From NCBI GenBank assembly GCA_965208125.1, contig OZ242320.1, positions 192,001 to 256,000 on the forward strand: DNA of 64,000 bases, read 5' to 3'. Source of the stretch: Candidatus Latescibacterota bacterium. Its GTDB lineage: Bacteria; Latescibacterota; UBA2968. The position numbers and the translations under genes were made by a program. The notes below the pieces were generated by a model. That model was not told where the DNA came from. It did not search any database and saw only the letters and a list, made by a program, of their open reading frames with translations. Position 1 is the first letter of the stretch; each line of letters opens with the position of its first letter. This document shows positions 25,818-59,848 of this stretch, in pieces.

Positions 25818-25823
25818 AATAAA

Positions 25824-33013: not shown

Positions 33014-33021
33014 ATCATCCC

Positions 33022-36203: not shown

Positions 36204-36219
36204 TGCAACATGCGTGCCA
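36204..36219 (-). promoter_or_regulatory. sigma54 -24/-12 promoter (cassette 4)
   Basis: TGGCAC-GCATG-TTGCA. Confidence 0.85.
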
Positions 36220-40297: not shown

Positions 40298-40455
40298 AAC
40301 ACCTCTCCTGATGCGTTGACGTATCGGATTCTTCGCCGCATGAACAGCCTGCCTCAAAAACAGCGGCGCACTGCCAAAAGATACTGAAAACAACGCCATC
40401 TTGCTGCATTTTATAAATGCCCTGCGCGTCCATTCCATCATTTTAGTCTCCTGTT

Positions 40456-41352: not shown

Positions 41353-41461
41353 ATTGTACTCCTCCCGTAGATAAAATCAGCCATCAATCTAAGTCCAGGA
41401 CAATGGCTCGCTGGAACATCTAATCCCGTATCCACAAAATACTATACTCCATTGTATAGTG

Positions 41462-44400
41462 TCAGCAAAAAACAAAAAGCTCTGGCAAAACACCAGAGCT
41501 TTTCTGTTCCATTTGGAGAGCCACTGTTTTTCCACTTACCGATCTGCCAAATCCCTCTGCAAAAATCAGAAAGTCGTTGAACCCCACTGTGCCATTGCTA
41601 TCCAGATCGTATTTTGTGTCAAAACCCGTATCACCCTCCGACAGCCCAAAGTGGCTGACAAATAGCAAAAAATCCGTGCTCCCAACCATATTATCCCCAT
41701 CAAAATCCAGGCTTGCAAGACTGGCACCTGTCCCGATTAGTTTCACTTCCACGCTTTTGCCATCCTGACACGTAAACGCCACAACCGTCTGATCTGATTG
41801 AACCGTTGCGACCGCGAGATCATACATGTCATCCAAACGCCATTTTCCTCGCAACGTCACATCCACTGTGCGGGGCATACTCGACTGATTTACAATCAAC
41901 GTGCCATCTTGCCGGTGCGGATCCTGAATGGTCCAACTCCACCCAAAATCCGGATCCGCAACCGAAAGCAATAATCCATCCTCCACTTCGCGGGTCATCG
42001 CCAAAATCGGCAAAGACACAGATACAATCTGACCTTTATTGGGACTTGCATTCGTGTTAAACAGCGCGTAACCCGTGGTTTTCAAATCCCGATGATGTAC
42101 GATGTGTGCCATATGATTTTGCTGCCAGACCTCATATTCGGGTGCATTGGCAAATGCGTGTACCTTGTCGGACGAGCTTTGCACCAGCACAGCATATTCA
42201 TACTTTTTTGCCTGAGGCGCACTACCGTGATCCAGATACGCCAATTCAAAAGTTCCTGTACCACCGCTATCCCTGCCAAAATCTCCAGGGGTTTGCACCT
42301 GACGACGCACCCGCAAGTCGCCTCCATCTGGAATCACATAGCCATTACCCGAGGCGTCCATCACCCATGCGGTCTGCCCCGTTGTCCCCGAAAATGTATA
42401 GGGAATCGCCAGCACGCCTGTCCCATTGACCCATGTGGAGCGGTCCTCAGATATAGCTACTTGAAATAATGGCGTCACAGTTCTATGTCCACTATCATCA
42501 TTCTTAATACCCGATCCCAGGCAAACCAGTACATCGTCAAAACAAAACACCGTCTTAAACGCTCGAAAACTCGTATTGTATTCTGTATCGTGCAACTTCA
42601 GCGCAAACACGCCGTTTTGTCCTTCTATGTTCACCCCACCCACAAAAGTCTCATCCGAAAAATTGCGATCACGTGTCCTGTTGTTAAGCTCCGCATGACT
42701 CAGGCGAATCACCGTCGTACCCGGCCACATGCTCCAGTCCCATCCATCCCGAACAATCCCACTCGCCTCCCGGCCAACCGGATCGCCACTGGCGTAAATT
42801 AGCACCGAGCCATAGCTCAAATAACGACCGAGCGAATTTTCACTACCCGACGATTCAAAATCCCACACGTACTTGCTCCACCCTTTCATACTCACCATCC
42901 ATTCATTGCGCCGATGAATAGACAACGCGCCATAAGGCAATGTCCAGTGCCCAGATGGCGCTGCCTCGGGTGCGTGTCCTGCCTCTGCAAAATCCACTAT
43001 CATTTGCATCGCACCCGGCGTGTGCAAATACATGATCCCTGCAGATGCCTGTTCGAACAGACCTTCTCGCAATAACTGCGATTGAGGTTTCCAAAGCTGC
43101 ATAAACGCGCCAGCCAGTTCTGCATCCACCGAGGGATAGCTCAAAGCCACATACATATATGCCGGCAAATTTGCGTCGTTTACCGTTGTATTATTTGGAA
43201 ACCGACCACCGATGGCTGGCGAAATATCATACGTATTCGCCATAGCCCTGAACGTCAACAGCGCCTGCTTCAAATTATCGCGCTTATCATCGGCAACTGC
43301 AAAGACCGTATCGTGCAACAAATACACCAGCACAGAAGCCACATGAAAAGCATTTGGTGCATACGCATTGGCATAGATGCCCCGATGGTGAAACCCCACA
43401 AAATCCGGCTTAATCGTATCCAGCCACCCGGGCGCAATATCCAGCGCATTATTCAACCAGGCGACATAGCGGCGCATAGTAACGACCTTTTCAGGCGTAT
43501 CGTCCATCATCAAAATGCACAACAACCGATACATCGCCACCGAACGCAAAAAATCCGCATTCGCGCCCAGCACCTCGGGATCCTCATACAACTCACCAAA
43601 CATACTGTGCCATTTCAGGGTCGCCAATTCCCGCGCCAACGCCCCTTTGCTCTCCAAAGCATCCCGCATCAAATACACGGCATGGGAATACCCCGCAAGG
43701 CGCAAAAATTGGTGATGCAGCGAGCCTATACCACTACCGTCTGCCCATCCCTGATCATAGAGATAATCAAAAATATCCAGCACTTGATTTTTGGTATTGT
43801 TGTCACCATTCAACCGATAATCCAGCACCAGACGCAACAAGACCCTTGAGAAAACATTCTGATAGGGGGGAGTGTATGGTGATCGTTCAGCAAAGAGTGG
43901 GACTCCCAAAATTCGGTTATTCTCACGTCGAATATTATAATCTGGCAGATTGCGCCGCCCGAACCGGAAAAGCTTCTCCAACTCACTGATCCGAATTTGA
44001 ACGGGCTGTCGCTGGTCATTTTTCACATTGTCGCCCAAAACCCAGGTTTCATATCTCTGGACAATCGTCTCAAAAGCCTCTTTTTCTTCTTCGGTGATCT
44101 GCGAAGGTAGCAGATCTTGCAGTGTATTTAGACTCCATCTGTATTCGCGATTTCTCTCGCCACTTGTATTTACACCTCCATTCACAAATGGAACCTGGGC
44201 ATCAGCTGATCGCCTCGAGTCAATTGTTTCTACAAGTTCCATCAGATCCAGATAGACAGTGCCACTATTCGGCGCAATGACTTCAAATGCTGTCACGCGT
44301 CCATTTTGTGGACCTGCATAAGCATCATTGATCGCATCTTCTTGTAGATCAATCCACATCACCCGCCAACCCGTGAAATTCAAGCCAAAATGAAATTGAT

Positions 44401-44752
44401 AACGCGGATTATTTGTCACCAGTTCAGATTTCGTTCCAAACGCAAAAGTCAGTTTCTCACTGAGTGCCATTTCATTATAAACCCACGCCCGAAATCCCTT
44501 CAGTGCCTTGTCGCGTCCCGGCGAGGGATCTGTAAATAAAAGACGTCCGTTATTCTGCCAGATCCATTTCAGAGATTGCACTCCCGACTTGTAATGATCC
44601 GTCGAAAGCGATATCTCGCTGTTAGCATCTGTTTGATAGTCTGGCGACATTTCCTCAAAATTGTAGCACCAGGGCGTATCTTGCGCCATCGCCATATTGA
44701 CGCTGCCGAGCACACAGCCTGCAAAAATCATGATCCATCGCTGTAAGTTCAT
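41462..44752 (-). CDS. Polysaccharide lyase family 8, chondroitinase ABC-like, with C-terminal EF-hand/dockerin-like domain
   Basis: Signal peptide; HYKSG.QSLKW, LNFTGWR, DQGWADGS, DTIKPD..GFHH..Y..AY, GWDW..WPGTT; paired DxDxD/N repeats at the C-terminus. Confidence 0.85.
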   Translation of the reverse strand: MNLQRWIMIFAGCVLGSVNMAMAQDTPWCYNFEEMSPDYQTDANSEISLSTDHYKSGVQSLKWIWQNNGRLLFTDPSPGRDKALKGFRAWVYNEMALSEKLTFAFGTKSELVTNNPRYQFHFGLNFTGWRVMWIDLQEDAINDAYAGPQNGRVTAFEVIAPNSGTVYLDLMELVETIDSRRSADAQVPFVNGGVNTSGERNREYRWSLNTLQDLLPSQITEEEKEAFETIVQRYETWVLGDNVKNDQRQPVQIRISELEKLFRFGRRNLPDYNIRRENNRILGVPLFAERSPYTPPYQNVFSRVLLRLVLDYRLNGDNNTKNQVLDIFDYLYDQGWADGSGIGSLHHQFLRLAGYSHAVYLMRDALESKGALARELATLKWHSMFGELYEDPEVLGANADFLRSVAMYRLLCILMMDDTPEKVVTMRRYVAWLNNALDIAPGWLDTIKPDFVGFHHRGIYANAYAPNAFHVASVLVYLLHDTVFAVADDKRDNLKQALLTFRAMANTYDISPAIGGRFPNNTTVNDANLPAYMYVALSYPSVDAELAGAFMQLWKPQSQLLREGLFEQASAGIMYLHTPGAMQMIVDFAEAGHAPEAAPSGHWTLPYGALSIHRRNEWMVSMKGWSKYVWDFESSGSENSLGRYLSYGSVLIYASGDPVGREASGIVRDGWDWSMWPGTTVIRLSHAELNNRTRDRNFSDETFVGGVNIEGQNGVFALKLHDTEYNTSFRAFKTVFCFDDVLVCLGSGIKNDDSGHRTVTPLFQVAISEDRSTWVNGTGVLAIPYTFSGTTGQTAWVMDASGNGYVIPDGGDLRVRRQVQTPGDFGRDSGGTGTFELAYLDHGSAPQAKKYEYAVLVQSSSDKVHAFANAPEYEVWQQNHMAHIVHHRDLKTTGYALFNTNASPNKGQIVSVSLPILAMTREVEDGLLLSVADPDFGWSWTIQDPHRQDGTLIVNQSSMPRTVDVTLRGKWRLDDMYDLAVATVQSDQTVVAFTCQDGKSVEVKLIGTGASLASLDFDGDNMVGSTDFLLFVSHFGLSEGDTGFDTKYDLDSNGTVGFNDFLIFAEGFGRSVSGKTVALQMEQKSSGVLPELFVFC

Positions 44753-44782: not shown

Positions 44783-47700
44783 CTATTGCCCGAACAGGAT
44801 GAGCGAAGTACCCACGGCAATCTGGATGCCAACGTAGTTCATCGGTAATGAAGGTGCTGTTCCCAGACTGACGGTGGTCGATGTTGTCCCGCTCTGCGTC
44901 ACCGTTATGGGTTCGCTTTGGATATTGCCCTTTGAAATTGTGACTTCTGTGATCGCATTGCCATTCTCATCGGTCAGTGTACCATCTGTTGCCGATAGCT
45001 CAACAGTCATATCAAACGGCGCACCCTGGGCAACCTTGACCACAACTGTGGCGGGACCTTGTGCGGTCAAATCCGTATTGTCTGTACGTTCCAAGATTAG
45101 CGTAAGACTAAAGGGCGCACCCGTATTGCCAGACACATCCAGATGACTCAGGCTGGACAAACCGAAGAATATACTGTCGGGCAGCGCGCTCAACGTATTT
45201 CCATTCAGACTCAAAGTCTCCAAATTGGCCAAACCGGAAAACACGCCAGAGGGCAGTGTACTCACTGAATTACTGTCGAGACTCACAAATCTCAAATTCG
45301 ATAGACCATTGAACACATCCGCAGGTAGTGCGGTCAATTCATTGTCGTAAAGGCTCACAAATCTCAAATTCGACAGACCGGAAAACACACCTGATGGGAG
45401 TGAGGTCAAGTCATTGTCGTAAAAATTCAGAATTCTCAGATTGGGCAGGTCAGAGAAATCACTCGCCAGTAAAGTGGTGATACTCCGACTACGGAAATCC
45501 AAAGAATCTACAATCCCGACCAGGTGCTCCTCTGTGACATGGGCGCAGTTGTTAATCCCGTCTATCACAGACAGGATAGCCGTTTGTACCTGTGAAGTCC
45601 TGCTGCAAATCCCTATGGGGATCGTCAAAGTAAAGCTCGTCTGTACCTGACTGCCTTTGCCGTCATCGGCTGTTACTATAATCGTAAAGGGCGAACCATC
45701 GGTATTGGACGGTGTACCGCTGAACGTGCGCGAGGACGAAGTAAAAGTCAGCCACGCTGGCTGCCCGCTGCTCGTGTAGGTAAGGACATCGCTATCGGCA
45801 TCGCTAAACGCATCTGCGGGAAAGGTGTACGTAAACGCGTTGCCCGATAATGCAATCTGATCAGTAAGTCCTTTATCGACCACAGGTGCCGTATTTTTCA
45901 CCCTCACATCGATCTCCTGCGTGGCGCTGTTAGTCTGATCACTTGCAGTCACTGTCACCGTTGCACTTCCTGCACTCACCGGCGTTATCATAACTTCAGA
46001 ACCCGTTACACTCACCGACGCTATACCGGGCATATTTGAAGTCGCACTGTAGCTTAAAATGTCGCCATCCACATCCGAAAAACTGTCTTTCACATCCACA
46101 ACTACGGCACCGCCCCCCACATCCAGAGTCTGTGCGGCAATTGCTCCCACGACTTCAGGTTCTGTCTTTCCGAACAAGACAAGCGGTGTGCCAGAAACTA
46201 TGCGGATACCCTCATATCCTCCTGGGACTTCAGGTGCCTCGTCTATGTGGATCCTGGTCGGTGATGTCCCGCTCTGTGTCACCGTTATAGATTCACTCTG
46301 GATATTGCCCTTTGAAATTGTCGCCTCAGTTATCGCACTGCCATTCCCATTGGTCAGTGTACCGTCTATTGCCGATAGCTCAACAGTCATATCAAACGGC
46401 GCACCCTGAGCAATACTGACCACAACAGTGGCGGGTCCCTGTACTGTCAAGTCCGCATTGTCTATGCGTTTCAATTCCAGCGTGAGGGTGAAGGGCGCAC
46501 CCGTATTGCCGGATACGTCCAGCTTTCTCAAACTGGACAGACCGTAGAACATGCTATCGGGAAGCACGCTCAACAAGTTACCGGTCAGATTCAGGATTTG
46601 CAGACTGGATAAGTCAAAAAAAGCACTATCGGGCAATGCGCTCAATGTGTTGCCGCTGAGATTCAGAGTTTGCAGACTGGATAAGCCGGAAAACGCACGA
46701 TCAGGGAGCGTGCCCAATTCGTTGCCGTCAAGACTCAGGAACCTCAAACTGGAAAGATCCGAAAATGCATCATCGGGTAGCGCGGCACTCAACAGATTAC
46801 TGTTCAGACTCAGCGTTTGCAGACTGGACAGACCACTGAACACACCTATCGGAAGATTGGTCAGACGGTTATTGTCAAGGTTCAGCGTTTGCAGACTGGA
46901 CAGATCACTGAACACACCCATTGGAAGATTGGTCAGTCGATTATCGTAAAGACTCAGCGTCTGCAGACTGGACAGATCACTGAACACACCCATTGGAAGA
47001 TTGGTCAGCCGATTATCGTAAAGACTCAGCGTCTGCAGACTGGACAGGTCAGCGAATAGGTTAGCGTCCAGATTATTCAACCTGTTACCATCAAGATTCA
47101 GGGTTTGCAGGCTGGACAAGCCAGTGAACACATTAGTGGGCAGTATTCTAAATTTATTTCTATAAAGACTCAAAGTTTGCAGGCTGGACAAATCAGTGAA
47201 CACGTCAGCAGGCAGTGTTCTCAAATCATTCTCGTAAAGCCACAAGTTTTGAAGATTAGACAGACCAGTGAAATCATTTGCCAGCAGGGCAGTGATATTC
47301 TGATTGCTAAGATCCAAAATCTCCGTGATCCCCGTCAGGTGCATGTTTGTGACCAGAGCACAGTCGGTAATCCCAGCTATCGCAGACAATATCTCGGTTT
47401 GAACAGCCGCTGTGCGGGTACATATCTCTGGCGCGATTTCGGTCATCCCTACTACAGTATCTGACCACCCACTTGTCCCTTCGTCATTCTCTGCTCTGAC
47501 CTGTACATCGTAGCTTGTATCTTGACTTAGGCTGCTAATCGTATATTCAAGAGCACCATCACCACTCTCCCACGCATCCTCTGCCACCGTCCAGTTGGCA
47601 TCATCTGTCTCATCATCACTGGTCAGAATATGACGCACATCATAAGCACTGATCGCTGGTCCCGTGTTCGTAGGCGCTTCCCATTCCACGGTCAGACTGT

Positions 47701-50700
47701 TAAAGGTCGAAGATGCCACTGTCGGGGCATCAGGCACACCGGGAGCCTCTCCATCCACATCAGTCAGGGTCACCGTGAGCGTATCCCTCGCTGTCAAAGC
47801 TCGACCACCCATGCCGCTTGTCGCAGACACGAACACGATATATTCATTATTGCCCGCTGCATTGGCTGGGTCGGTAACCGCCACATCAGCAGGTGCCTCA
47901 TAGTTGGGGGCTACCTTGAACGTCAACACACCGGTAGATCCTCCAATGGAGAACTGTGACCCATCTGCACCAGACTCAATGCCATAACGCTCGATATCAT
48001 CCCCCATATCATCATCCGTCGCACTCACAGTCACAAGGTCTGATGTGCTGTTCTCTGCCACTGTGATCGGTGAGATAGGTGCAATCACGGGAGCCACATT
48101 GGAAGAGATTTTGATATCGTCCAATCGGAAAATCGTATCTCCGAAGTCCTCCGTTGTGGTGAATATGATTCCGTCTACATCTTCCCAGGTGGCATTGCTC
48201 CGCCCTAATCTGCTCAGGGGAATACTCACCTGGTGCCACTGACTGTCCCATGAAGTTATGCCTATATTCTCCTCATTGACGCGGTATCCCCTGTTCGAAT
48301 CCATGTCGAAGCGGACTCTGAACTCGGTTCCTGGGGTATCGCCCCATACCCAGAATTCAAAGACATAGTCGTCAGCCAGGAGGGACAAGTCGAAATTCGG
48401 GGTAAAATCGAACCTCACAATATCGCCCTTTTTCGCTCCTGACCAGTAAATGCTTTTGTTCCCCACGACCGCCTCTGTATCATCGTCGAACGTGAGCCAT
48501 CCCCTGCTATAGAGTTTGCCGGAAATACCCTCTCCGAGGCTATTGAGGCCATCGGTATATATCTCAAAGCCAGCCTGCTTAGACACGGTCACCCATTCAA
48601 GCTGAGGGGAGACGTTCAGCCCGAGTGCCTCGACTATCGAGATATCGAGATTGTAGTCGAAGTGATCATCACCCTCATTTTCAAATATTTTGAAACCTCC
48701 TACGCCGTATTCCCAGAGCGTCCAGGCAATATTGTTGTCTTCCATATAAGTTCGCGCTTCTCGAATCCAGGCCGCGCGGTCATCTGGGGGGGCATATGGC
48801 CCATAGACGCCAAACTCGCCGCACCACACAGGCACGTTGCGATCCTCAGCAAAATCGACAGCGTTCTTGAGCCCATTCTGCAATTTCTCTAACGTCCCCT
48901 TCGTGTGATAATCTTCAAGAATTTCGGGCACGGGGTCCGGCATGCGGCTGGCATCATACGGCCAGGGCACGCCCCTGAGATCCTTAAATCTGTCTATCCA
49001 GCCAGCCCCTTGGTGCGTAAACTCTCCAGGATTGTAGATATGAAATGTGTAGATAAGGTTATCGTCTGTATATTCCGGCAGCGTTCTGAGGGCGCCCGAA
49101 TGGAATTTGCCACCTGTGACCACGATGGTGTGTGTGTTATCATGGGCGCGAATGGTGTCGATAACTGCCTGCTGAATCGGATTCCAAATACTGGGTTGGA
49201 TGTTTGGCTCGTTGAAGACTTCGTACAACACCAGCTTAGAGCGATTTTTATAGCGCTCGGCGATCTGAGGCCAGACCTGGACGAGATATTCCCTGGTATC
49301 ACTCCGATTATTTTGGTCTGTTTCTTCCGCGGCTAGTTTATGGTTGGTGTGATTGTCGAGGATAATGTAGAGGCCGAGTTCCTCTGCCCAATCGACTATC
49401 TGGTCGAGATAGGTGAAAAAGAGAGGGTCTATGATGTGTGAGGGTTCCCCACTGGTCAGAGGAACAAAGGGCAGTCGCACAACGTCGCATCCAAGGGTCT
49501 TAACGTTCACAAACGTCTGCCGATCATAGGTTATGAAAGGATGCGTCCTGGGACGCTGCATAAACACAGTGAGATTTACGCCGCGACTAAAAGGAGGGAG
49601 TCGCCGCTTCGGAGTGGCGGTCGCCTGGTTGGAGACGAGGCTGTTGCCCACGACATTCACAGCGCGGACCTCGAAGGTATATTCCGTGTCGAAGGTCAGA
49701 TCCCCTACGGTGTAGGTCGTGGCCGTGCCCCCAGTGGTCGTCCAGTTCGGATCCCACGTTGTACCATCATCGTCGCTGGCGCGGTATTCGTAGCGCGTGA
49801 TGGGTGAGCCTCCCTCGTCCGCAGGCGCGATCCAAGACAGTGTTACCAAAAAGCCAGAAGTGGCAATCAGGTCTGTGGGTGCGCCCGGGACGGTGACCAG
49901 TGTTGTCCCACTTACTGAGTCTGACCAATCACTTATGCCTTCATCACTTTCTGCTCGCACCTGCACTTCATAGCTTGTATTTGGACTTAAACTACCAATC
50001 GTGTAGGTAAGATCACCATCATCTGTCTCCCACGCATCAGTCGCCACTGTCCAGTTGGCATCTACTTTATCAGGCGCACTACTAAGAATATGACGCACAT
50101 CATACGCACTAATCGCAGGTCCTGTGTTCGTTGGGACTTCCCAACTCACCTTCAAGCTGTTGAAGGTCGTGGCTGCTATGGTTGGCGCATCAGGCTTGCC
50201 AGGAGGCTCGGCCTCATCACCCACCATCACTTTAAGTGTATCCCCTGCTGTCAATGCACGGGCATTCTCACCACTGGTTACTTCTACGAACACGATATAT
50301 TCATTGTTGTTGGCTGCATTGGATGGATCAGTCACTGCCACATCCTTAGGCTCCTCATAGTTGGGTGCCACCTTGAACGTCAACACACCTGTTTGGTCAT
50401 CAATCTCAAACTGTGATCCATCGGCACCTTCAACAATGCTATAACCCTCTATGTCATCATCGCTATCTGCATCTGTCGCACTCACGGTCACAATGTCTGT
50501 AGTGCTATTCTCATTGATTGAGAACGCCGATGTACTCGTGATTACTGGCGCAACATTGGCTTCAGTCATCCCCACCCCAGAGGATGACCAACCACCTGTG
50601 CCCTCATCACTTCCTGCTCGCACTTGAATATCATAGCTTGTGTTCTGCTCCAGACTGCCAATCGTATATTCAAGGTCATCACCATTATTACTCGTCCACA

Positions 50701-53700
50701 CTTCCTCAACCACTGTCCACTTGCTATCATCCTCCTTATCTGTGGCACTGACACTACTGAGAATGTAGCGTACATCATACGCACTAATCGCAGGTCCTGT
50801 GTTCGCAGGGGCTGTCCATTCTACTATCAGACTATTAAATGTTACTTCTGCTATCGTCGGGGTAGCAGGCTTGCCCGGTACTTCAGTCACATCACTCACG
50901 GTGATTGTTAGTGTGTCCCTTGCTGTCAACGCGCGCGCACCTGTACCGCCTGTTGCTGTGACATACACGATGTATTCATTGTTACTTGCATCATTAGCCG
51001 GATCACTAACTGCCACATCTTTAGGATCTTCATAGTTAGGGGATGCCTTGAATGTCAACACACCGGTAGATGCACCAATAGAGAACAGTTCCCCATCAGC
51101 ACCAGAGGCTATCCCATAACTTTCAATGTCATCACCTTCATCTGCATCAGTCGCACTGACTGTGACAAGGGCACCCGTGCTATTCTCTGCCATGCTGATC
51201 GGCGAGATAGTAGCAATCACTGGGGTCACATTCGCACTTGTTGTCCCACTCACCGAAGAAGACCAGTCACTCGTGCCTTCGTCACTTTCTGCACGCACCT
51301 GTATATCATAGCTCGTATTCTGGCTCAAGCCGCCTATCAGATATTCGAGATTGCCATCACCACTCTTCCAGGCCTCTTCCTTCACGGTCCAGTTGGCATC
51401 ATCTGTCTCATCCTCACTTGTCAGAATATGACGCACATCATAAGCACTGATCGCTGGTCCCGTGTTCGTAGGCGCTTCCCATTCCACGGTCAGACTGTTA
51501 AAGGTCGAGGATGCCACTGTCGGGGCATCAGGCACACCAGGTGCTTCGTTCACATCACTCACTGTCACGGTCAGTGTATCTCTTACCATTAACTCACGAT
51601 CACCTGTCCCGCTCTTCACTTCCACCACCACGATATACTCATTGTTGCTTGCTGCATTGGATGGATCAGCCACCGCTACATCCTTAGGATCCTCATAGTT
51701 TGGAGCCGCTTTGAACGTCAATACACCACTTTGTTCAGTAAGCGCAAACTGCTCTCCATCTGCTGCATCAACAATCTCATACCCTGTAATACTATCATCG
51801 TCATCGGCATCACTCGCAGTGACTGTGACCAGTGCCCCCGTGCTGTTCTCTGCCACACTGATTGGAGAAATAGTGGCGATGACTGGCGCCACATTCGCTC
51901 TTGTTGTCCCACTCACCGAAGAAGACCAGTCACTGGTGCCTTCATCACTTTCTGCTCTAACCTGTATATCATAACCTGTATCCTGACTCAGGTTACCAAC
52001 CGGATATTCAAGCGCATCATCACCAGTCTCCCACGCATCCTCTACCTCTGTCCAGTTGGCGTCATCTGTCTCATCCTCACTTGTCAGAATATGACGCACA
52101 TCATAAGCACTGATCGTTGGTCCCATGTTCGTTGGGGCTACCCATTCTATCTTTAAGCTGTTAAATGTTGCTTGTGCTATCGTCGGTGCAGCAGGTGTGC
52201 CAGGAACCTCTGTCTCATCGGTCACCGTCACTGTAATCGTATCTCTACTCGTTAGTGCGCGGGCATCCTCTCCACCTGTCGTAGTCACGATTACAATGTA
52301 TTCATTGTTGTTCGCTGCATTGTCATTAGCAGAATCATTCGCATCCGTAAATGTCACATCCTTTGGATCTTCATAATTCGGCGCTGTCTTGAATGTCAAC
52401 ACACCCGTAGATGCTCCAATGGAGAACTGTGCGCCATCTGCATCATCAACAATCCCATACCTCTCAATGTCATCATCCTCATCTGCATCTGTCGCACTGA
52501 CCGTGATAACATCTGCTGTACTGTTCTCACTGACTGAAATCGCCGATATACTCGCGAAGACTGGTGCAACATTGGCTTCAGTCATCCCCACCCCAGAGGA
52601 TGACCAACCACCTATGCCCTCATCACTTCCTGCTCGCACTTGAATATCATAGCTTGTGTTCTGCTCCAGACTGCCAATCGTATATTCAAGGTCATCACCA
52701 TTATTACTCGTCCACACTGCCTCAACCACTGTCCACTTGTCATCTGCCTTATCTGATGCATTGGTCAGAATGTAGCGGATATCATACGCACTTATATCAG
52801 GACCTGTGTTATCAGGCGCACTCCATTGCACCTTTAAGCTATTCACTGTTGCCTCTGCCACTGTTGGTGCATCAGGCGCTCCAGGGGCTTCTTTCACATC
52901 CTCCACAGTCACCGTAATCGTATCTCTACCTGTCAACTCACGAGCACCTGTCCCACTCTTCACCTCCACCACCACGATGTATTCATTATTCTCCCCTGCA
53001 TTGTTATTCGTCGAATTGGATACATCCTTAAACGCTACATCGGCAGGTGCCTCATAGTTGGGAGCCATCTTGAAACTCAACACACCCGTCTGATCATTGA
53101 GATCAAACTGTGCTCCATCTGCACCTTCAACAATGTGATACCCTGTGATGTTGTCATCTGCATTGGCATCTGTCGCTGTGACCGTGACAATGTCCGTTGT
53201 ACTGTTCTCATTGAATGTAACCGCAGACACACTTGTGAACACGGGTGGTGTATTATGGCCGGTATTAGCTCGAATCGCTGGAGACCAATTACTTTTTCCG
53301 CCCTCAAAGACGGTTCTAACTTGAAACTCATAAGTCGTCGACCTCTCCAGGCCGACGACTGTATAAGACATATCAGATCTGGTAAAATTGACGGGTATAA
53401 TGGTATTATAGTCCTCATCAACCTTTCTATATCGGATCTCATAGCCAATAATAACATAATCATTCGCAGGTGGCGCTCTCCAGGTGATCTCAACAAAAAC
53501 AGTCCCAATTGGTTTCACTCTTGCGAAGATAGGTTTATCCGGCGTGAGTGGATGTATAATATTTATAGTAACTTCAGCAGTAGCAACACCACCATTACTG
53601 TCATCTACAACGATGGTGAACGTGTAAACCTCTTTATTGAACACCGCACCTGCTTTCGTCTTAATATGACCGAACCAATTGACCGTAAAATTGGAAGCAT

Positions 53701-54658
53701 CATCACCCATTAAAGAATAACTCAACTTGTCATCATTGGGATCATAGGCTCTTACAGGCGGATCAATTTCCAGTATGATAGACGGGTCTAAAGTAGATGG
53801 ATCTAAAGTAAAAGAGAGAACAACAGAATTTTTTGGAAACACCGGTGGCATATCCATATTTGTCACCGGCTCAACAGAGATATGAAAATAGGACATATAA
53901 TACTCCTCGCCATCAATCACATCTATTTCTATCCTGAAAACGCCCGCCTTCTCTGGGATTCCGACGACCGTCATCATGGTCTTACCCGTCGAAGAATCAT
54001 AGTGAAAGTTGACCATACGTATGCCGCGTGGAAAATTTGCAATACCTATCTGATCATAATGTGGCGTGCCACCAGATACAGTAACAAGGACATCTGGCAT
54101 GGCAGTACCGAATGCGAATTTCAACGTATCAGACACTGTTAAAATTCTTCCCGACTCTTTTACTGCTATTTCTATTTGAACAGAAGACACATCGTCAACG
54201 CCATCTGTTTGTTGACTTTTTGCTAACTCTTGCCCAGATGCGATATTTTCATCTACCAAAAACTTCACAGGATGCGTCGGGGGAGAGGCTAATGTATGGT
54301 TCACCACTTTGCCATAGTTGTTCGCAAAGATTAGAAAATCAGCAATATCAACTATACCATTGCCATCAATGTCGTATTTCGCATCGTATTTTTCATCCTC
54401 ATCCCGGGTCCCAAAGTGGTTAACAAATGCTCGAAAGTCAGGTGAATCGACAACCCCATTTCCATTAAAATCTAAAGAAGTTACCATCGCAGTTTGCAAT
54501 TCTACATTTAGTATTTCACTGTCAACCTGTCCATTCCTGCCAGGTTCAGCACGCACCAACCGAATCAAAAAAAGAGGCCATGAGAAAATCAGCAGAGTGA
54601 TGAATATGAGTGCAAAAATCAAGGCAGGTACTGAACACCTGTTAAGCAGCTTTGGCAT
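44783..54658 (-). CDS. Giant secreted/surface protein (~3290 aa): dockerin-like, cadherin/FN3 array, GH5 + CBM-like, LRR and Ig/He_PIG domains
   Basis: GAGGAG RBS; hydrophobic N-terminus; cadherin motifs (ENST, DAD, PNYE), FN3 (W.AP..Y..L..NTSY.IQVRA), GH5 NEP and WCGEFG, 24-aa LRRs, WLTF..RTFSGTP. Confidence 0.88.
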   Translation of the reverse strand: MPKLLNRCSVPALIFALIFITLLIFSWPLFLIRLVRAEPGRNGQVDSEILNVELQTAMVTSLDFNGNGVVDSPDFRAFVNHFGTRDEDEKYDAKYDIDGNGIVDIADFLIFANNYGKVVNHTLASPPTHPVKFLVDENIASGQELAKSQQTDGVDDVSSVQIEIAVKESGRILTVSDTLKFAFGTAMPDVLVTVSGGTPHYDQIGIANFPRGIRMVNFHYDSSTGKTMMTVVGIPEKAGVFRIEIDVIDGEEYYMSYFHISVEPVTNMDMPPVFPKNSVVLSFTLDPSTLDPSIILEIDPPVRAYDPNDDKLSYSLMGDDASNFTVNWFGHIKTKAGAVFNKEVYTFTIVVDDSNGGVATAEVTINIIHPLTPDKPIFARVKPIGTVFVEITWRAPPANDYVIIGYEIRYRKVDEDYNTIIPVNFTRSDMSYTVVGLERSTTYEFQVRTVFEGGKSNWSPAIRANTGHNTPPVFTSVSAVTFNENSTTDIVTVTATDANADDNITGYHIVEGADGAQFDLNDQTGVLSFKMAPNYEAPADVAFKDVSNSTNNNAGENNEYIVVVEVKSGTGARELTGRDTITVTVEDVKEAPGAPDAPTVAEATVNSLKVQWSAPDNTGPDISAYDIRYILTNASDKADDKWTVVEAVWTSNNGDDLEYTIGSLEQNTSYDIQVRAGSDEGIGGWSSSGVGMTEANVAPVFASISAISVSENSTADVITVSATDADEDDDIERYGIVDDADGAQFSIGASTGVLTFKTAPNYEDPKDVTFTDANDSANDNAANNNEYIVIVTTTGGEDARALTSRDTITVTVTDETEVPGTPAAPTIAQATFNSLKIEWVAPTNMGPTISAYDVRHILTSEDETDDANWTEVEDAWETGDDALEYPVGNLSQDTGYDIQVRAESDEGTSDWSSSVSGTTRANVAPVIATISPISVAENSTGALVTVTASDADDDDSITGYEIVDAADGEQFALTEQSGVLTFKAAPNYEDPKDVAVADPSNAASNNEYIVVVEVKSGTGDRELMVRDTLTVTVSDVNEAPGVPDAPTVASSTFNSLTVEWEAPTNTGPAISAYDVRHILTSEDETDDANWTVKEEAWKSGDGNLEYLIGGLSQNTSYDIQVRAESDEGTSDWSSSVSGTTSANVTPVIATISPISMAENSTGALVTVSATDADEGDDIESYGIASGADGELFSIGASTGVLTFKASPNYEDPKDVAVSDPANDASNNEYIVYVTATGGTGARALTARDTLTITVSDVTEVPGKPATPTIAEVTFNSLIVEWTAPANTGPAISAYDVRYILSSVSATDKEDDSKWTVVEEVWTSNNGDDLEYTIGSLEQNTSYDIQVRAGSDEGTGGWSSSGVGMTEANVAPVITSTSAFSINENSTTDIVTVSATDADSDDDIEGYSIVEGADGSQFEIDDQTGVLTFKVAPNYEEPKDVAVTDPSNAANNNEYIVFVEVTSGENARALTAGDTLKVMVGDEAEPPGKPDAPTIAATTFNSLKVSWEVPTNTGPAISAYDVRHILSSAPDKVDANWTVATDAWETDDGDLTYTIGSLSPNTSYEVQVRAESDEGISDWSDSVSGTTLVTVPGAPTDLIATSGFLVTLSWIAPADEGGSPITRYEYRASDDDGTTWDPNWTTTGGTATTYTVGDLTFDTEYTFEVRAVNVVGNSLVSNQATATPKRRLPPFSRGVNLTVFMQRPRTHPFITYDRQTFVNVKTLGCDVVRLPFVPLTSGEPSHIIDPLFFTYLDQIVDWAEELGLYIILDNHTNHKLAAEETDQNNRSDTREYLVQVWPQIAERYKNRSKLVLYEVFNEPNIQPSIWNPIQQAVIDTIRAHDNTHTIVVTGGKFHSGALRTLPEYTDDNLIYTFHIYNPGEFTHQGAGWIDRFKDLRGVPWPYDASRMPDPVPEILEDYHTKGTLEKLQNGLKNAVDFAEDRNVPVWCGEFGVYGPYAPPDDRAAWIREARTYMEDNNIAWTLWEYGVGGFKIFENEGDDHFDYNLDISIVEALGLNVSPQLEWVTVSKQAGFEIYTDGLNSLGEGISGKLYSRGWLTFDDDTEAVVGNKSIYWSGAKKGDIVRFDFTPNFDLSLLADDYVFEFWVWGDTPGTEFRVRFDMDSNRGYRVNEENIGITSWDSQWHQVSIPLSRLGRSNATWEDVDGIIFTTTEDFGDTIFRLDDIKISSNVAPVIAPISPITVAENSTSDLVTVSATDDDMGDDIERYGIESGADGSQFSIGGSTGVLTFKVAPNYEAPADVAVTDPANAAGNNEYIVFVSATSGMGGRALTARDTLTVTLTDVDGEAPGVPDAPTVASSTFNSLTVEWEAPTNTGPAISAYDVRHILTSDDETDDANWTVAEDAWESGDGALEYTISSLSQDTSYDVQVRAENDEGTSGWSDTVVGMTEIAPEICTRTAAVQTEILSAIAGITDCALVTNMHLTGITEILDLSNQNITALLANDFTGLSNLQNLWLYENDLRTLPADVFTDLSSLQTLSLYRNKFRILPTNVFTGLSSLQTLNLDGNRLNNLDANLFADLSSLQTLSLYDNRLTNLPMGVFSDLSSLQTLSLYDNRLTNLPMGVFSDLSSLQTLNLDNNRLTNLPIGVFSGLSSLQTLSLNSNLLSAALPDDAFSDLSSLRFLSLDGNELGTLPDRAFSGLSSLQTLNLSGNTLSALPDSAFFDLSSLQILNLTGNLLSVLPDSMFYGLSSLRKLDVSGNTGAPFTLTLELKRIDNADLTVQGPATVVVSIAQGAPFDMTVELSAIDGTLTNGNGSAITEATISKGNIQSESITVTQSGTSPTRIHIDEAPEVPGGYEGIRIVSGTPLVLFGKTEPEVVGAIAAQTLDVGGGAVVVDVKDSFSDVDGDILSYSATSNMPGIASVSVTGSEVMITPVSAGSATVTVTASDQTNSATQEIDVRVKNTAPVVDKGLTDQIALSGNAFTYTFPADAFSDADSDVLTYTSSGQPAWLTFTSSSRTFSGTPSNTDGSPFTIIVTADDGKGSQVQTSFTLTIPIGICSRTSQVQTAILSVIDGINNCAHVTEEHLVGIVDSLDFRSRSITTLLASDFSDLPNLRILNFYDNDLTSLPSGVFSGLSNLRFVSLYDNELTALPADVFNGLSNLRFVSLDSNSVSTLPSGVFSGLANLETLSLNGNTLSALPDSIFFGLSSLSHLDVSGNTGAPFSLTLILERTDNTDLTAQGPATVVVKVAQGAPFDMTVELSATDGTLTDENGNAITEVTISKGNIQSEPITVTQSGTTSTTVSLGTAPSLPMNYVGIQIAVGTSLILFGQ
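46520..47320 (-). repeat. 72-bp tandem repeats encoding leucine-rich repeats
   Basis: Near-identical LSSLQTLSLYDNRLTNLPMGVFSD units. Confidence 0.8.
49900..53260 (-). repeat. ~670-bp intragenic repeats (cadherin + FN3 units); one more copy at about 47440-48100
   Basis: Long near-identical DNA stretches, e.g. ~47620-47740 vs ~51420-51540 and ~50550-50720 vs ~52570-52740. Confidence 0.8.
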
Positions 54659-54699
54659 ATTACATCTCCTCAAGATAGATATCATTCTATCTGAAGTGA

Positions 54700-54715
54700 T
54701 GCAATATGTGTGCCA
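54700..54715 (-). promoter_or_regulatory. sigma54 -24/-12 promoter (cassette 3)
   Basis: TGGCAC-ACATA-TTGCA. Confidence 0.85.
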
Positions 54716-54790: not shown

Positions 54791-54850
54791 AGCCAGACGG
54801 AATTTTACATTATCAGACGGTATATCGTCTAATGATATAATCAGACTGGC
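54791..54850. promoter_or_regulatory. Palindromic enhancer (UAS)
   Basis: GCCAG..AGACGGTATATCGTCT..CTGGC dyad centred ~108 bp upstream of the -24 box. Confidence 0.65.
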
Positions 54851-54919: not shown

Positions 54920-55942
54920 CTATGCGAGACGTTTGATGCCCAATTTTTTCATTTTGCTGTATAAAGTAGAAGGCGGTAATCCCAGCAGAATCGCCGCCCC
55001 CTCTACTCCCTTTATTTTCCAGTTGGTGGCTTCAAGCACTTTGAGGATATAGCGACGTTCAAATTCTTCCAAAGGTACAATTTCGCGTCCTTGGGGATCT
55101 GGTAAGATAACCCTTATAAGTTCGAGATCCTCTTCTTTGATTCGAGAACCTTCGCACATGATTACAGCCCGCTGGATGGTATGCTTCAATTCTCGCACAT
55201 TTCCAGGCCAATGATAGACTTGCAACGCATCTATCACCTCTGGTGTTAGGGAACTGATTTCCTTACCCAAATGCGCCGCCATGCGATCCTTGAAAAACTC
55301 GGCTAACTCTGGTATATCCTCTTTGCGCTCCCGAAGAGGCGGCAAATAGAGCGGAAAAACATAAATGCGGTAATAGAGATCCTCACGGAAATCACCTGCG
55401 CGGACCATCTCCTCAAGGTTGTGATTGGTCGCGGTCACAATGCGCGTCTGCGCCCTCAGCGTCTGGTTTCCTCCAACGCGCTCAAACGTGTCCTCTTCCA
55501 GCAATCGCAACAACTTGGCCTGTGTTTCCAGAGCCATGTCGCCAATTTCATCTAAAAAAAGTGTGCCGCCTTTGGCCAGTTCCACCTTGCCCAGCCTGCG
55601 GGAAACTGCGCTGGTAAAGGCTCCCTTCTCGTGACCAAAGAGTTCACTATCGATCAACGTATGGGACAGGGCACCGCAGTTGACCTGTATAAAAGGGCCA
55701 TCGCTATTTGAACTCAGCGCGTGTAGTGCCAATGCAGCCAACCCCTTACCCACACCTGTTTCGCCCAGGATCAGCACCGTCATATTGGTGGATGCAATCT
55801 TTCTGAGTTTGACTTGAAACTGTTGCAAAGCCTCGCTTTGACCGACAAACTCATTGTCATCCCCATCAGTACTTTTGAACGAATTAGACTGCACACTTGC
55901 CCCCTCTGTATTCTTTGCTCTTACCTGCTCATCGTCTTCCAT
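54920..55942 (-). CDS. sigma54-dependent activator without a sensory domain (AAA+ + HTH only)
   Basis: ~30-aa leader, then [33 protein letters not shown] and a Fis-type HTH. Confidence 0.9.
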   Translation of the reverse strand: MEDDEQVRAKNTEGASVQSNSFKSTDGDDNEFVGQSEALQQFQVKLRKIASTNMTVLILGETGVGKGLAALALHALSSNSDGPFIQVNCGALSHTLIDSELFGHEKGAFTSAVSRRLGKVELAKGGTLFLDEIGDMALETQAKLLRLLEEDTFERVGGNQTLRAQTRIVTATNHNLEEMVRAGDFREDLYYRIYVFPLYLPPLRERKEDIPELAEFFKDRMAAHLGKEISSLTPEVIDALQVYHWPGNVRELKHTIQRAVIMCEGSRIKEEDLELIRVILPDPQGREIVPLEEFERRYILKVLEATNWKIKGVEGAAILLGLPPSTLYSKMKKLGIKRLA

Positions 55943-56040: not shown

Positions 56041-56056
56041 TGCAAGATACGTGCCA
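56041..56056 (-). promoter_or_regulatory. sigma54 -24/-12 promoter (cassette 2)
   Basis: TGGCAC-GTATC-TTGCA. Confidence 0.85.
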
Positions 56057-56129: not shown

Positions 56130-56270
56130 GAGCCAGACCGATTTTTATGCCATTAGACGATATATAGTCCAATGATATAATCAGACTGGCTCGTAATTTT
56201 AGGTAATTTTACTTATTATCAAAACTTTACGACAAATGGATTAAATATAGTCCCTGGACTATATTTAATC
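56130..56270. promoter_or_regulatory. Palindromic enhancer (UAS) plus a 15-bp perfect inverted repeat
   Basis: GAGCCAG..CATTAGACGATATATAGTCCAATG..CTGGCTC; GATTAAATATAGTCC-ct-GGACTATATTTAATC at 56239-56270. Confidence 0.65.
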
Positions 56271-56334: not shown

Positions 56335-59300
56335 TTACAAACCAGGACGTTCAATACCCAACTTTTTCATTTTGCTGTACAGAGTAGAAGGCGGTAATCC
56401 CAGCAGAATCGCCGCACCCTTTGCTCCTTTTACCCGCCAGTTGGTGTCTTGAAGCACTTCAATGAGGTATCGGCGTTCAAATTCCTCCAAAGGCACGACT
56501 TTGGGATCTTGAGAAACTGGCGACGCATTATCTTCTATATGAGAACCATATAGTCCGAGATCTCGCACATCAATTTGAGAACCGCGGCACACGATAACCG
56601 CTCGTTGTATGATATGCTCCAGTTCCCGCACATTTCCTGGCCAATAGTAGGTTTGCAATCCCTCTATAACATCTGGCGTCAAGGCACCGACTTGCTTTCC
56701 CAGATGTGTAGCTATGCGAGTCTTGAAAAATTCGGCCAGACGCGGTATATCCTCCTTGCGCTCGCGCAGGGGGGGGAGAATAATTGGAAAAACCTGGAAA
56801 CGATAATACAGATCCTCGCGGAAAGTACCTGCACTGACCATCTCCTGCAGGTCGCGATTGGTCGCTGCCACAATCCGCGCCTGCACCCTCAGTATCTCGT
56901 TACCCCCAACGCGCTCAAAAGTACGCTCTTCCAGCAAACGCAACATCCTGGTCTGCGTTTTCGGAGCCATATCACCAATCTCATCCAAAAAGAGCGTGCC
57001 GCCCTTAGCCAATTCCACCTTGCCCAGCTTGCGAGACACTGCGCTGGTAAACGCCCCCTTCTCATGACCAAAAAGTTCACTATCGATCAGCGTTTCAGGC
57101 AATGCACCGCAGTTGACCTGTATAAAAGGACCATCGCAATGGGGACTCAGCGCGTGTAGCACCCGCGCAGCCAATCCCTTACCCACACCTGTCTCGCCCA
57201 GAATCAGCACAGTTATATCAGTAGATGCCACCTCCATGAGTTTGATTTGAAACTGGTGCATAGCTTTGCTCTGCCCGATAAACTCTTTGCCAACACCATC
57301 TGTGCTGTTGAGCGCGGAGGTCAGCGCGCTGATGCGCGGATCCCTCTCTACGGAGAGTTGCACCTGCGTCATCTCTGAGTAATTGAGGTCGCGATCTACA
57401 GCCCTGACCTGAAAGGTATAGTCTCCCGGTGGCAGGTCCCGATAATAGACCCGCATCTCTCGGATCGCTGGCTGCCAGTCGTGGTCATAGCCCTTCAAAC
57501 GATAGACATAGAGCATGTCGCGGGGATGAGTGGAAAAACTCAGGCCTTTATACTCGAAAATCACACTCTGCTCTGTCGTAGATAGGACTCTTTCCTCTAA
57601 GTTCTCATAGACCTTATCCGCGACGACCTGGAGCAGGCGAACCGCGGGGGGCGTCTGTCGTGGGCGGTAGCGTATTATGGCCTCCCCGGCAGTGCCGAAC
57701 CAGAAATTTCCGTCGTGATCTTCAAGTATTTGAAGAACCGATCCTATATGCGGTGACTTGATGGTCTGAAAAAGCTGACCATCGTAGTGAGCTACCCCCC
57801 CGTCCATGCCGAGCCAGAGATGTCCTCGCGAATCCTCAAATAAGCAATGGATGCGGTTGCACGGCAAGCCATCTTCGGTGGTAAAGTTGCGAAAAACAAC
57901 ACCATCAAAGCAACTGAGACCTCTTTGAGTGGCGATCCACAAATTGCCGTGTCGGTCTTCTAATAAGTCGGTAATCCGGTTATCTAACAACCCATCTGCA
58001 ACAGTATAAAAAGAAATACCGTCTTCTATGTGCCACCGCCCGATACCCTTGCCACTGTCGAAGGGATTGTAGGTGCTCACACTAAACCAGAATTCACGGT
58101 CGCGCCTGGCGACCAGAGCACTAATATAGTTGAATTGCTCTTCTTTCTTCTCAAAAACGGTTTGGGACTGCCCATCCCGGTAGTAAACGATCTGCAGTGG
58201 TCTGGCAAACATCTCTTCTGTTTTTTTTCTAAGACCATTTTCCCACTGTCCAAAAATAAGTTGCCCATCCCGGCCCTCGGCGATTGCGCTGACACCCACT
58301 TCACCAGTACCTACGGCAATGTCCATTTTTTGAAAGGCCTGCCCATCGTAGCGGAACAGACCGTTATCCCCTCCAAACCACAGGTGTCCATCGCGGTCCT
58401 CGTAGATGGCGGAACAACTATTGAGATCAAGACCCTGTTTTGCTCCAACAAATTCAAAGTGCTCGCCATCAAAGCGCGCCAGGCTTTTGGTTGCGGGGCC
58501 CAGAAAAGGCTCGGAAAATCCGAGCCATATATCTCCCTGTCGATCCTGCAACATCCGTGATATTCTACTATCATCTTCGGGAAAATTCGCACCAAAATCG
58601 AAAATACTGATACCATGCGCATCGTATAGTCCTAAACCGCCGCCCCATGTGGCGAACCAGAACTGATACTCGCGATCCTGAAATACGGCGTTGACAACGG
58701 GATGGGGCAGACCATCGACAAGGGTAAACCTGCCGAATCCATCACCATTCCAGTAGAGGACCCCTGTCGAGGTACAGAACCACATCCGACCTTCGCGGTC
58801 ACACTGAATTTTGCGTAACTCACCACCCAAATTCACCTCAACAGACTGAAAGGTGCCATCGGCATAGCACCACAGTCCATCTCTGCGCTGCGATCGACCA
58901 ATCCACACCTTGCCAGTATGATCCTTGCCCACAGTATAGCTACTCTGGTCTGGGGGAAAACCCTCCTCCTCTTCGTAGCGGTGAAAGGATGCGCCATCAA
59001 AGCGGATGAGATAATTAAATCCAAACCACAGGTGACCTTCCGCATCCTGGGTAATACCCCAACACTGGTTAGACCACCCAGGAGAAGGCGGCTCCTGGTA
59101 GTGCTGTAGATAGAGTGGAATCAGGTCGTGGAAAGCTGTACCATCGTAATATCCCAGGGTACTGATACCGCCAAACCATATACGGCCCTTATTATCTTCG
59201 TAGATGAATAACACGGACCGACCTGCGATCCCATCGTCCTCCAAATGATGGAAAACCACTCCATCGTACCAGCAGACCCCATTCATAGTACCGAACCATA

Positions 59301-59532
59301 GCCGATCCTGACTATCCAAATGGATGGCAAAAACTCGATCGCTACACAAACCATCCTGTTCGGTAAACGTCTCGAACTTGTCCCCATCAAAGCGGCTGAC
59401 ACCACTATCCCAGGTAGCAATCCAGAGACACCCCTCGCTATCTTCGGCGATATGTTCGGTACGCACCCCAGCCAGACCATTGGCAAGAGAATAAGCCCGC
59501 CAGATGCCCTTTCTGTCGAGTGACTCAATCAT
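56335..59532 (-). CDS. sigma54-dependent activator: beta-propeller sensor + Y_Y_Y + AAA+ + HTH (paralog of 36426-39617)
   Basis: Same architecture and motifs, colinear over the whole length. Confidence 0.92.
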
Positions 59533-59700: not shown

Positions 59701-59716
59701 CGCAATATGCGTGCCA
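59701..59716 (-). promoter_or_regulatory. sigma54 -24/-12 promoter (cassette 1)
   Basis: TGGCAC-GCATA-TTGCG. Confidence 0.85.
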
Positions 59717-59793: not shown

Positions 59794-59848
59794 CCAGACT
59801 GTACTATATCTTCATGGACGATAGGTCGTCCATGAAGAGTCAATCTGG
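59794..59848. promoter_or_regulatory. Palindromic enhancer (UAS)
   Basis: Perfect 13-bp arms TCTTCATGGACGA-tagg-TCGTCCATGAAGA, flanked by CCAGA/TCTGG. Confidence 0.7.

Follow-up and report, generated by a model that had tools for sequence, protein, structure and literature searches.

A propeller/Y_Y_Y sensor fused to a sigma-54 activator in Candidatus Latescibacterota, predicted to act in the cytoplasm

We analysed a 64,000-nt stretch of a Candidatus Latescibacterota genome (contig OZ242320.1, positions 192,001 to 256,000), hereafter the window, to which all coordinates refer unless a position in Mb or on G000:C1 is stated. We focused on gene A (P0001), whose product joins a beta-propeller and Y_Y_Y sensor directly to a sigma-54 AAA+ domain and a helix-turn-helix (HTH), and on two related activators in the window, the full-length paralog B and the sensor-less C. 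As its leaderless sensor has no membrane helix and runs directly into the sigma-54 AAA+ and HTH domains, A must work inside the cytoplasm, as an enhancer-binding protein of the one-component kind. We propose that A, B and six further genomic copies are cytoplasmic one-component sigma-54 enhancer-binding proteins with a sensor of the hybrid two-component system (HTCS) type, a reading to which we assign a probability of about 0.62.

Architecture, location and distribution of the propeller activators

The Pfam scan of A detected Reg_prop repeats (E 2.3e-53), Y_Y_Y (residues 669-722), Sigma54_activat (PF00158, residues 752-917, E 2.6e-65), AAA_lid_14 (residues 923-997) and HTH_8 (residues 1015-1058), and no HisKA, HATPase_c, receiver, AraC-type HTH or GerE domain. 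Walker A (GETGVGKG) and Walker B (LFLDEIGD) were both present and the R-finger context was intact. The first-pass annotation of the window had described an HTCS-type propeller/Y_Y_Y sensor fused directly to a sigma-54 AAA+ domain through a hydrophilic linker, with no kinase, signal peptide or transmembrane helix. The open reading frame (ORF) proved to be real and lies on the minus strand, the fusion was confirmed by the Pfam architecture, the kinase domains were indeed missing, and the linker string given there was found in the translation, with 21 residues between Y_Y_Y and AAA+.

The AlphaFold2 (AF2) model of the A sensor (pLDDT 88.8, pTM 0.85, 52-row alignment) was all-beta. Its best Foldseek matches were BT4663 (4A2M, 4A2L) and BT3049 (3V9F), with E-values of 6e-38 to 5e-35 and TM-scores of 0.61-0.68 across the whole length, and unrelated propellers came next at about 0.3. 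A phmmer search against the PDB returned four distinct sequences, namely 4a2l (E 1.5e-42), 3v9f, 3va6 and 3ott, all of them sensor domains of Bacteroides thetaiotaomicron. The A sensor is of HTCS type by sequence and by fold, as had been claimed. The ratio of nonsynonymous to synonymous substitution rates (dN/dS) of the sensor was 0.15-0.21, both against orthologs and against B, and was not above that of the ATPase/HTH part, so the propeller sensor is a maintained domain.

Membrane segments were searched for by Kyte-Doolittle hydropathy (19-residue window, threshold 1.6) with positive-control proteins. The peak in A was 1.20, at the Walker A region, and the peaks of A, B and C, each at the Walker A strand, ranged from 1.20 to 1.42, none reaching 1.6. 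At the same locus, the test flagged signal peptides on the giant exported protein, the PL8 lyase, the DUF4955 protein, the GH2-like protein and two lipoproteins, and it detected eight helices in the MFS transporter. In A, the ATG has an in-frame stop 4 codons upstream, and in the seven full-length paralogs of the genome a stop was found 2-18 codons ahead of the conserved N-terminus. The conserved N-terminal motif, M-I/L-K-S/P-L-D-R-x-G-x-W-R-x-Y, was located at residue 4-5 in 93/120 close homologs, and 118/120 had no hydrophobic window. In the AlphaFold model the first element of the sensor was a beta strand at residue 10, with no long helix. The claim that A has neither signal peptide nor transmembrane helix thus held on hydropathy with controls, the sensor model, upstream stop and conserved N-terminus.

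Two classical propeller sensors of the same genome (P0289 and P0290; one with a kinase and one with a SpoIIE output) served as controls, and hydropathy showed in both a clear signal peptide and a membrane helix directly after the Y_Y_Y-like region. The 21-residue linker of A occupies the place of that helix. Among the 150 nearest sensor representatives, 47 had an N-terminal and a post-sensor segment by hydropathy, 37 had internal segments only, 7 an N-terminal segment only, and 59 had none. The median cysteine number was 13 (1.8%) in sensors without hydrophobic segments versus 3 (0.43%) in the signal-peptide-plus-helix class, a contrast overstated by the related sequences that the comparison takes in; the sensor of A has 11.

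We detected 18,549 sensor matches at E <= 1e-30 in a library of 1.84 billion proteins. Pfam domains were assigned in 64 of the 150 best sensor representatives, and 18 of these contained Sigma54_activat; the 18 fusions were without a membrane segment, except for one marginal window at Walker A. The 27 representatives that were collinear from residue 1 comprised 13 sigma-54 fusions, 1 degenerate fusion, 9 kinases, 2 SpoIIE phosphatases and 2 sensor-only proteins, and a leader or post-sensor helix was found in none of the 27. Judging from these output counts, cytoplasmic propeller sensors form a broad class, in which sigma-54 fusions are the most frequent near A.

The genome (5.75 Mb, a single contig) contains rpoN (Sigma54_DBD E 2.7e-59) and eight Y_Y_Y ORFs, all of which (8/8) also match Sigma54_activat; one is truncated. 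The two paralogs of the first-pass annotation were therefore correct for the window, where B is 76% identical to A over the whole length, but not as a total. The eighth paralog (G000:C1:70320-72461; positions 6392-8461 of locus L024) is truncated at the N-terminus, with a 713-aa open frame, its first ATG at codon 309 and the loop GAFTTA, and could be either a copy in decay or a shorter version. C is 71% identical to residues 735-1062 of A (BLASTP). The named close relatives were metagenome-assembled genomes titled Candidatus Latescibacterota or Latescibacteria, some of them labelled Gemmatimonadota. The sensor was matched at E <= 1e-60 in 45/168 species genomes of the phylum, and 15/20 other genomes of the same genus had matches, often at least six per genome.

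All three activators of the window (A, B and C) carry the L1 loop GAFTSA, as first noted, with F and T kept and Ser at position 5. We recognised 24 L1 loops in the genome: 9 GAFTGA, 7 GAFTSA, 4 GAFTDA, 1 GAFTTA and 3 other variants. All 7 GAFTSA loops belonged to the propeller-activator subfamily, C included, and position 5 of GAFTGA is relaxed across the activators of this genome. GAFTSA was present in 98/120 close homologs, and more distant propeller fusions retained GAFTGA. According to the part of a review available to us, most mutants of the GAFTGA motif cannot activate. Because the loop deviates from GAFTGA, we infer the sigma-54 function of A from the adjacent promoters and from the conservation of GAFTSA.

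Public annotation names such proteins 'sigma 54-interacting transcriptional regulator' or 'NtrC family response regulator/ligand-binding sensor domain-containing protein'. Our full-text literature search, with most subscription journals outside its coverage, found no study of the propeller/Y_Y_Y-sigma54 architecture, the only relevant work being on HTCS, on BguR and, in reviews, on enhancer-binding proteins, and a term search of the accessible text of a paper on sponge-associated Latescibacterota (PMC12993501) gave no mention of sigma, regulator or propeller. The architecture, which is common in metagenomes, is thus already recorded but, as far as these searches reach, unstudied.

Promoter cassettes and downstream genes

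Each fusion adjoins a conserved cassette of ~150 bp (Table 1). Exact TGGCAC-N5-TTGC matches occurred four times in the window, all on the minus (gene) strand and all intergenic, and a slightly relaxed pattern gave 102 sites genome-wide versus about 22 expected. A one-mismatch site (TGGCATCCAGATTGC, 44817-44831, upstream of the PL8 gene) was discounted as a promoter, as it falls within the giant gene and no cassette accompanies it. The four window cassettes aligned over about 200 bp with 73% column identity. Their order was an outer inverted repeat (GCCAGTCTGA ... CGGTCTGGCT) and a T-run, an inner 14-16-bp palindrome centred at about -107, with the general form GnnCGATATATCGnnC, an AT-rich box (AAAAATAATACTTTATG) at -44, and the -24/-12 elements. 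When 15 sites from this genome and related loci were aligned on promoter distance, the element order was largely shared, though some sites diverged, and in this position-anchored comparison the L007 site had no clear inverted repeat. The AT box was found at -44 +/- 2 in 12/102 promoter-like sites, against a background of 0.075%. It did not convincingly match the IHF consensus, so we refer to it only as an AT-rich conserved box.

Table 1. Features of the window described in the text. UAS, upstream activating sequence; LRR, leucine-rich repeat; GH, glycoside hydrolase; z, RNA-folding z-score.
Feature	Position	Strand	Basis
Gene A (P0001), 1065-aa propeller/Y_Y_Y-sigma54 AAA+-HTH activator	56335..59532	minus	ORF call, ATG start, Pfam architecture
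Twin beta-propeller sensor of A, residues 1 to about 629	57646..59532	minus	Reg_prop, AF2 model, Foldseek
Y_Y_Y (fn3-like) domain of A, residues 630-728	57349..57645	minus	Pfam, translation
Hydrophilic 21-residue linker of A	57286..57348	minus	Between last Y_Y_Y strand and AAA+ start
Sigma-54 AAA+ domain and lid of A, residues 750-997	56542..57285	minus	Pfam
L1 loop GAFTSA of A (variant of GAFTGA)	57040..57057	minus	Translation
Fis-type HTH_8 DNA-binding domain of A	56359..56490	minus	Pfam HTH_8, E 5.7e-9
Gene B, 1063-aa paralog, same architecture, GAFTSA	36426..39617	minus	Pfam, alignment to A
Gene C, 340-aa sensor-less activator (AAA+ and HTH alone, GAFTSA)	54920..55942	minus	Pfam, BLASTP
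Giant exported 3300-aa protein with LRR, 8 fn3, cadherin, Ig-like and GH5 cellulase domains	44783..54685	minus	Pfam; signal-peptide-like N-terminus
PL8 lyase, DUF4955 and DUF1961 genes between giant gene and B, tightly packed	39614..44752	minus	Pfam; signal peptides
Likely B-controlled operon: exported GH2-like protein, 2 lipoproteins (one Exop_C/SGBP-like), MFS_2 sugar importer, leaderless GH3	27401..36141	minus	Pfam; hydropathy heuristics
Sigma-54 promoter TGGCACGCATATTGC upstream of A	59702..59716	minus	Exact match
Candidate UAS palindrome GGACGACCTATCGTCC, centre about 107 bp upstream of A promoter, hairpin tip then T-run	59816..59831	minus	RNA fold, z = -10.4
Sigma-54 promoter TGGCACGTATCTTGC between A and C	56042..56056	minus	Exact match
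Candidate UAS GGACTATATATCGTCT downstream of A, in terminator-like hairpin	56155..56170	minus	RNA fold, z = -7.0
Sigma-54 promoter TGGCACACATATTGC ahead of giant gene	54701..54715	minus	Exact match
Candidate UAS AGACGATATACCGTCT, about 107 bp upstream of giant-gene promoter	54815..54830	minus	RNA fold, z = -4.2
Sigma-54 promoter TGGCACGCATGTTGC downstream of B	36205..36219	minus	Exact match
Candidate UAS GGTCATATATGGTCC downstream of B	36319..36333	minus	RNA fold, z = -3.2

The inner palindrome differed between cassettes that had the outer repeat in common. The promoters of A, C and the giant gene were accompanied by a GAC-type palindrome (GACGATATAnCGTC), imperfect in each copy. The palindrome was GGTCATATATGGTCC after B, ACCGTATATGGT after the 1.55-Mb copy, GGGCGATGTATTGTCCC after the 4.81-Mb copy and its relative in L008, and GGTCGATATATCGACC in L006. 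The sequence of the HTH recognition helix co-varied with the palindrome type, and two of the palindromes adjacent to paralogs recurred exactly at remote sigma-54 promoters with the same spacing. We read this as the pattern to be expected of paralogous activators whose DNA specificities have diverged. In RNA folding, the inverted repeat of each window cassette (54779-54859, 56120-56200, 59780-59860 and 36283-36363, minus strand) formed a long hairpin ahead of a U-run (z = -3.2 to -10.4), which places the candidate enhancer at the tip of a terminator-like structure; the roles of terminator and enhancer may be combined in a single element.

The gene order after A is C, the giant gene, PL8 lyase, DUF4955, DUF1961 and B. 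The 95% ortholog locus L002 has no copy of C, and its A-side cassette directly adjoins the giant gene. The L002 cassette consists of the upstream half of the C cassette and the promoter half of the giant-gene cassette, and an identical copy of the GGACTATATATCGTCT element stands there ahead of the giant gene. From this arrangement, C looks like a recent insertion that created a possible cascade. The called ATG of the giant gene lies about 16 nt past the promoter, and another ATG 27 nt downstream, with a GAGGAG ribosome-binding site, is probably the true start. Similarly, the called start of the GH2-like ORF (33022-36249, minus; start at 36249) lies upstream of the promoter at 36205-36219, and its true start is probably Met37/38 (about 36141), where the signal peptide begins. 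The DUF1961 protein (39614-40492, minus), whose gene overlaps the start of B by 4 nt, has a twin-arginine-like leader (TRRAFIK...), which suggests export by the twin-arginine (Tat) route. At the B operon, the MFS_2 importer and the leaderless GH3 imply that sugars should reach the cytoplasm.

Giant LRR/FG-GAP/cadherin/fn3 proteins directly follow three of the 8 paralogs in the genome, namely A (by way of C) and the copies near 1.55 and 4.81 Mb. Among the paralogs other than A and B, the proteins that follow include an LRR/dockerin protein of 1612 aa, and an LRR/FG-GAP/LDL-repeat protein of 1639 aa together with a 1495-aa LRR protein; one paralog fronts just a small membrane protein and another paralog. 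At related loci, the neighbours were giant fn3/cadherin/GH5 proteins, PL8, DUF4955, DUF1961, sulfatases, and activators in tandem pairs. Remote cassettes preceded an LRR protein accompanied by outer-membrane and WD40 proteins, three LacI-type regulators together with a TonB-dependent receptor, and a sugar-nucleotide epimerase. From the gene content downstream of the cassettes, the regulon appears to combine genes for glycan breakdown with giant surface proteins of eukaryote-like type.

We also noted several features of individual loci. L022 (G000:C1:3584124-3591270) contains two propeller activators in tandem, the upstream one with the canonical GAFTGA, and between them lie a sigma-54 promoter and an ORF of 124 aa whose product has a superinfection-immunity (Imm_superinfect) domain. 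L025 (G000:C1:5380377-5383167) has three sigma-54 promoter-like sites in 3 kb, each ahead of a gene for a LacI-family regulator, and a TonB-dependent receptor comes next; palindromes matching those beside propeller activators are present at two of the three sites. Finally, the window contains an IS605-family OrfB/TnpB-like ORF (24693-25832, minus; OrfB_IS605 and Cas12f1-like TNB domains) and, at its edge, a HerA-like ATPase (62412-63986, minus; DUF87 and HAS barrel) upstream of a GT2 glycosyltransferase and a class-III aminotransferase.

Proposed mechanism, alternative explanations and significance

In the mechanism that we propose, a dimer of the C-terminal HTH would bind the paralog-specific 14-16 bp palindrome about 107 bp upstream of TGGCAC-N5-TTGC, the AT-rich box at -44 would probably assist DNA bending, and the AAA+ ring would remodel the sigma-54 holoenzyme. 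By analogy with other bacterial enhancer-binding proteins (bEBPs) and BT4663, the sensor would keep the AAA+ domains non-hexameric, and a cytoplasmic ligand would alter the geometry of the Y_Y_Y ends so that the ring could assemble, i.e. by relief of inhibition. Since 21 hydrophilic residues replace the membrane helix, the AAA+ domains would be acted on directly whenever the two Y_Y_Y ends of a sensor dimer changed their spacing. The accessible text of PMC7175178 states that the regulatory domain of a bEBP usually inhibits the ATPase until a signal arrives, that pairs of HTHs occupy UAS sites and that IHF aids looping, and a scissor-like movement is noted for BT4663 in the accessible part of PMC8534201. 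A would switch on C, and the sensor-less C would activate the giant operon, thus working as an amplifier. The predicted targets are the giant exported LRR/fn3/cadherin/GH5 proteins, the PL8/DUF4955/DUF1961 clusters and, for B, the GH2-like/lipoprotein/MFS/GH3 uptake operon. An imported glycan breakdown product is our best single guess for the ligand of A and B, tentatively held at somewhat below even odds; from gene context, a glycan fragment is a plausible ligand for some paralogs.

Several points weigh against the cytoplasmic sigma-54 activator reading. GAFTSA deviates from the GAFTGA signature; the location is read from hydropathy, a crude substitute for SignalP or DeepTMHMM, and from a cysteine contrast inflated as described above; the UAS assignment draws on no more than about a dozen sites, through their position, palindromy and co-variation; and the paralogs near 3.585, 3.589, 2.21 and 0.07 Mb have no glycan gene downstream. 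The proposal of a cytoplasmic oligosaccharide-sensing one-component activator, which the first-pass annotation had made, stood for the cytoplasmic one-component enhancer-binding protein; the oligosaccharide part fits the context of B, and only loosely that of A, which precedes the giant GH5-bearing protein and the PL8 lyase. In its strict form, every paralog would be the dedicated sensor of a catabolic locus, a polysaccharide utilisation locus regulator moved to the cytoplasm, with propellers that bind imported oligosaccharides such as laminari-oligosaccharides or unsaturated chondroitin disaccharides. The sensor is homologous to the glycan-binding HTCS sensors, PL8 lyase, DUF4955, DUF1961, sulfatase and GH genes adjoin members in this genome and its relatives, oligosaccharides should enter the cytoplasm through the importer of the B operon, and a remote cassette has LacI-type regulators and a TonB-dependent receptor under its control. 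However, the three paralogs with giant proteins downstream, together with loci L002 and L008, directly front those proteins and not catabolic enzymes, two paralogs front only small ORFs of unknown kind or another paralog, ligands are known for very few Reg_prop sensors, and the two sugars named are guesses. We regard this strict form as possible but doubtful.

Beta-propellers are common protein-interaction scaffolds, and the propellers of A could instead be a platform for protein binding or oligomerisation that takes no small molecule, with activity dependent on a partner protein or on the balance of copy number with C. The heterogeneous targets and the sensor-less paralog beside A are in line with such a platform, but the closest relatives with solved structures are sensors that bind ligands, the loci compared showed no conserved partner gene beside the paralogs, and C, being absent from the 95% ortholog locus, is no standing part of the system; we consider such a platform improbable. 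As the module is usually periplasmic, we also considered that A might be mis-called, with a true start upstream that adds a signal peptide, or might be the decaying remnant of a membrane HTCS. We found no support for this, and the stops upstream of the seven full-length paralogs, the position of the N-terminal motif in the close homologs, the dN/dS of the sensor and the open frames of about 1060-1130 aa in 45 genomes make it extremely improbable.

A broader and bolder extension of the cytoplasmic one-component reading, speculative and in our judgement rather unlikely, is that a Latescibacterota lineage moved an HTCS glycan sensor inside the cell, in up to six or more copies per genome, and wired it to the sigma-54 promoters of giant eukaryote-like repeat proteins (LRR, cadherin, fn3, FG-GAP) that are thought to mediate life with an animal host. 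Imported breakdown products of the host matrix would cue the display of these proteins, and the enhancer would lie in the loop of the preceding terminator hairpin, one element both ending the upstream transcript and receiving the activator. If true, this would give a first regulatory handle on the eukaryote-like proteins of uncultured symbionts.

The propeller/Y_Y_Y sensor, treated as a periplasmic module in those parts of the literature that were accessible, has a large cytoplasmic branch by hydropathy (59/150 nearest representative clusters without a membrane segment), with a sigma-54 ATPase, a histidine kinase or a PP2C phosphatase as output. The 730-aa propeller would be an addition to the list of bEBP regulatory domains and would offer a natural test of a scissor-type sensor controlling AAA+ ring assembly without a membrane. 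The cassettes predict which activator pairs with which giant protein in uncultured Latescibacterota, which makes the regulation testable in a heterologous host. One-component sigma-54 sensors are in use as tight biosensor parts, and a family of many specificities could be useful in the same way once its ligands are known.

Comparison with known systems

Like the Bacteroides HTCS sensors (BT4663, BT3049, BT4673; 4A2L, 4A2M, 3V9F, 3OTT), A has a twin beta-propeller followed by Y_Y_Y and is associated with glycan-degrading genes, glycosaminoglycan lyases included; its sequence identity to those sensors is only 17-19%. Unlike them, it lacks a signal peptide, a membrane helix after Y_Y_Y and any HisKA, HATPase, receiver or AraC domain, its sensor is cysteine-rich (11 Cys), and its output is a sigma-54 AAA+ ATPase with a Fis HTH. 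A therefore lacks two features that define HTCS, namely the membrane topology and the phosphorelay.

One-component bEBPs with ligand-binding N-terminal domains include NorR (GAF), XylR/DmpR/MobR (V4R), PrpR and TyrR. A shares with them the N-terminal sensor, the AAA+ domain with an L1 loop and the C-terminal HTH, as well as a UAS about 100 bp upstream of a -24/-12 promoter (a candidate UAS in A), and relief of inhibition by a ligand would, by analogy, be the likely mechanism. It differs from them in the GAFTSA loop and in the sensor, a 730-aa twin propeller and not a small GAF, PAS, V4R or ACT domain. The NCBIfam search of A gave no equivalog above cut-off, and all matches were limited to residues >= 711. 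Judged by its sequence, A is a bEBP by definition, except for the variant L1 loop. C (340 aa), in turn, resembles PspF in having AAA+ and HTH alone, with an NCBIfam pspF match below cut-off. There are no psp genes nearby, though no search was aimed at a PspA-like inhibitor, and, unlike PspF, C is a recent derivative of the propeller subfamily.

BguR of marine Bacteroidota is described, in the accessible text of its report, as a membrane-spanning one-component propeller regulator with a signal peptide, one membrane helix, periplasmic sensing and a GerE HTH (bioRxiv 10.64898/2026.01.10.698779). As in BguR, which according to the same text controls glycan utilisation genes, an HTCS-type propeller/Y_Y_Y sensor is coupled in A to a DNA-binding output without a phosphorelay. 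Unlike BguR, whose GerE HTH, as described there, works without ATP, A is predicted to be wholly cytoplasmic and has an ATP-driven sigma-54 output.

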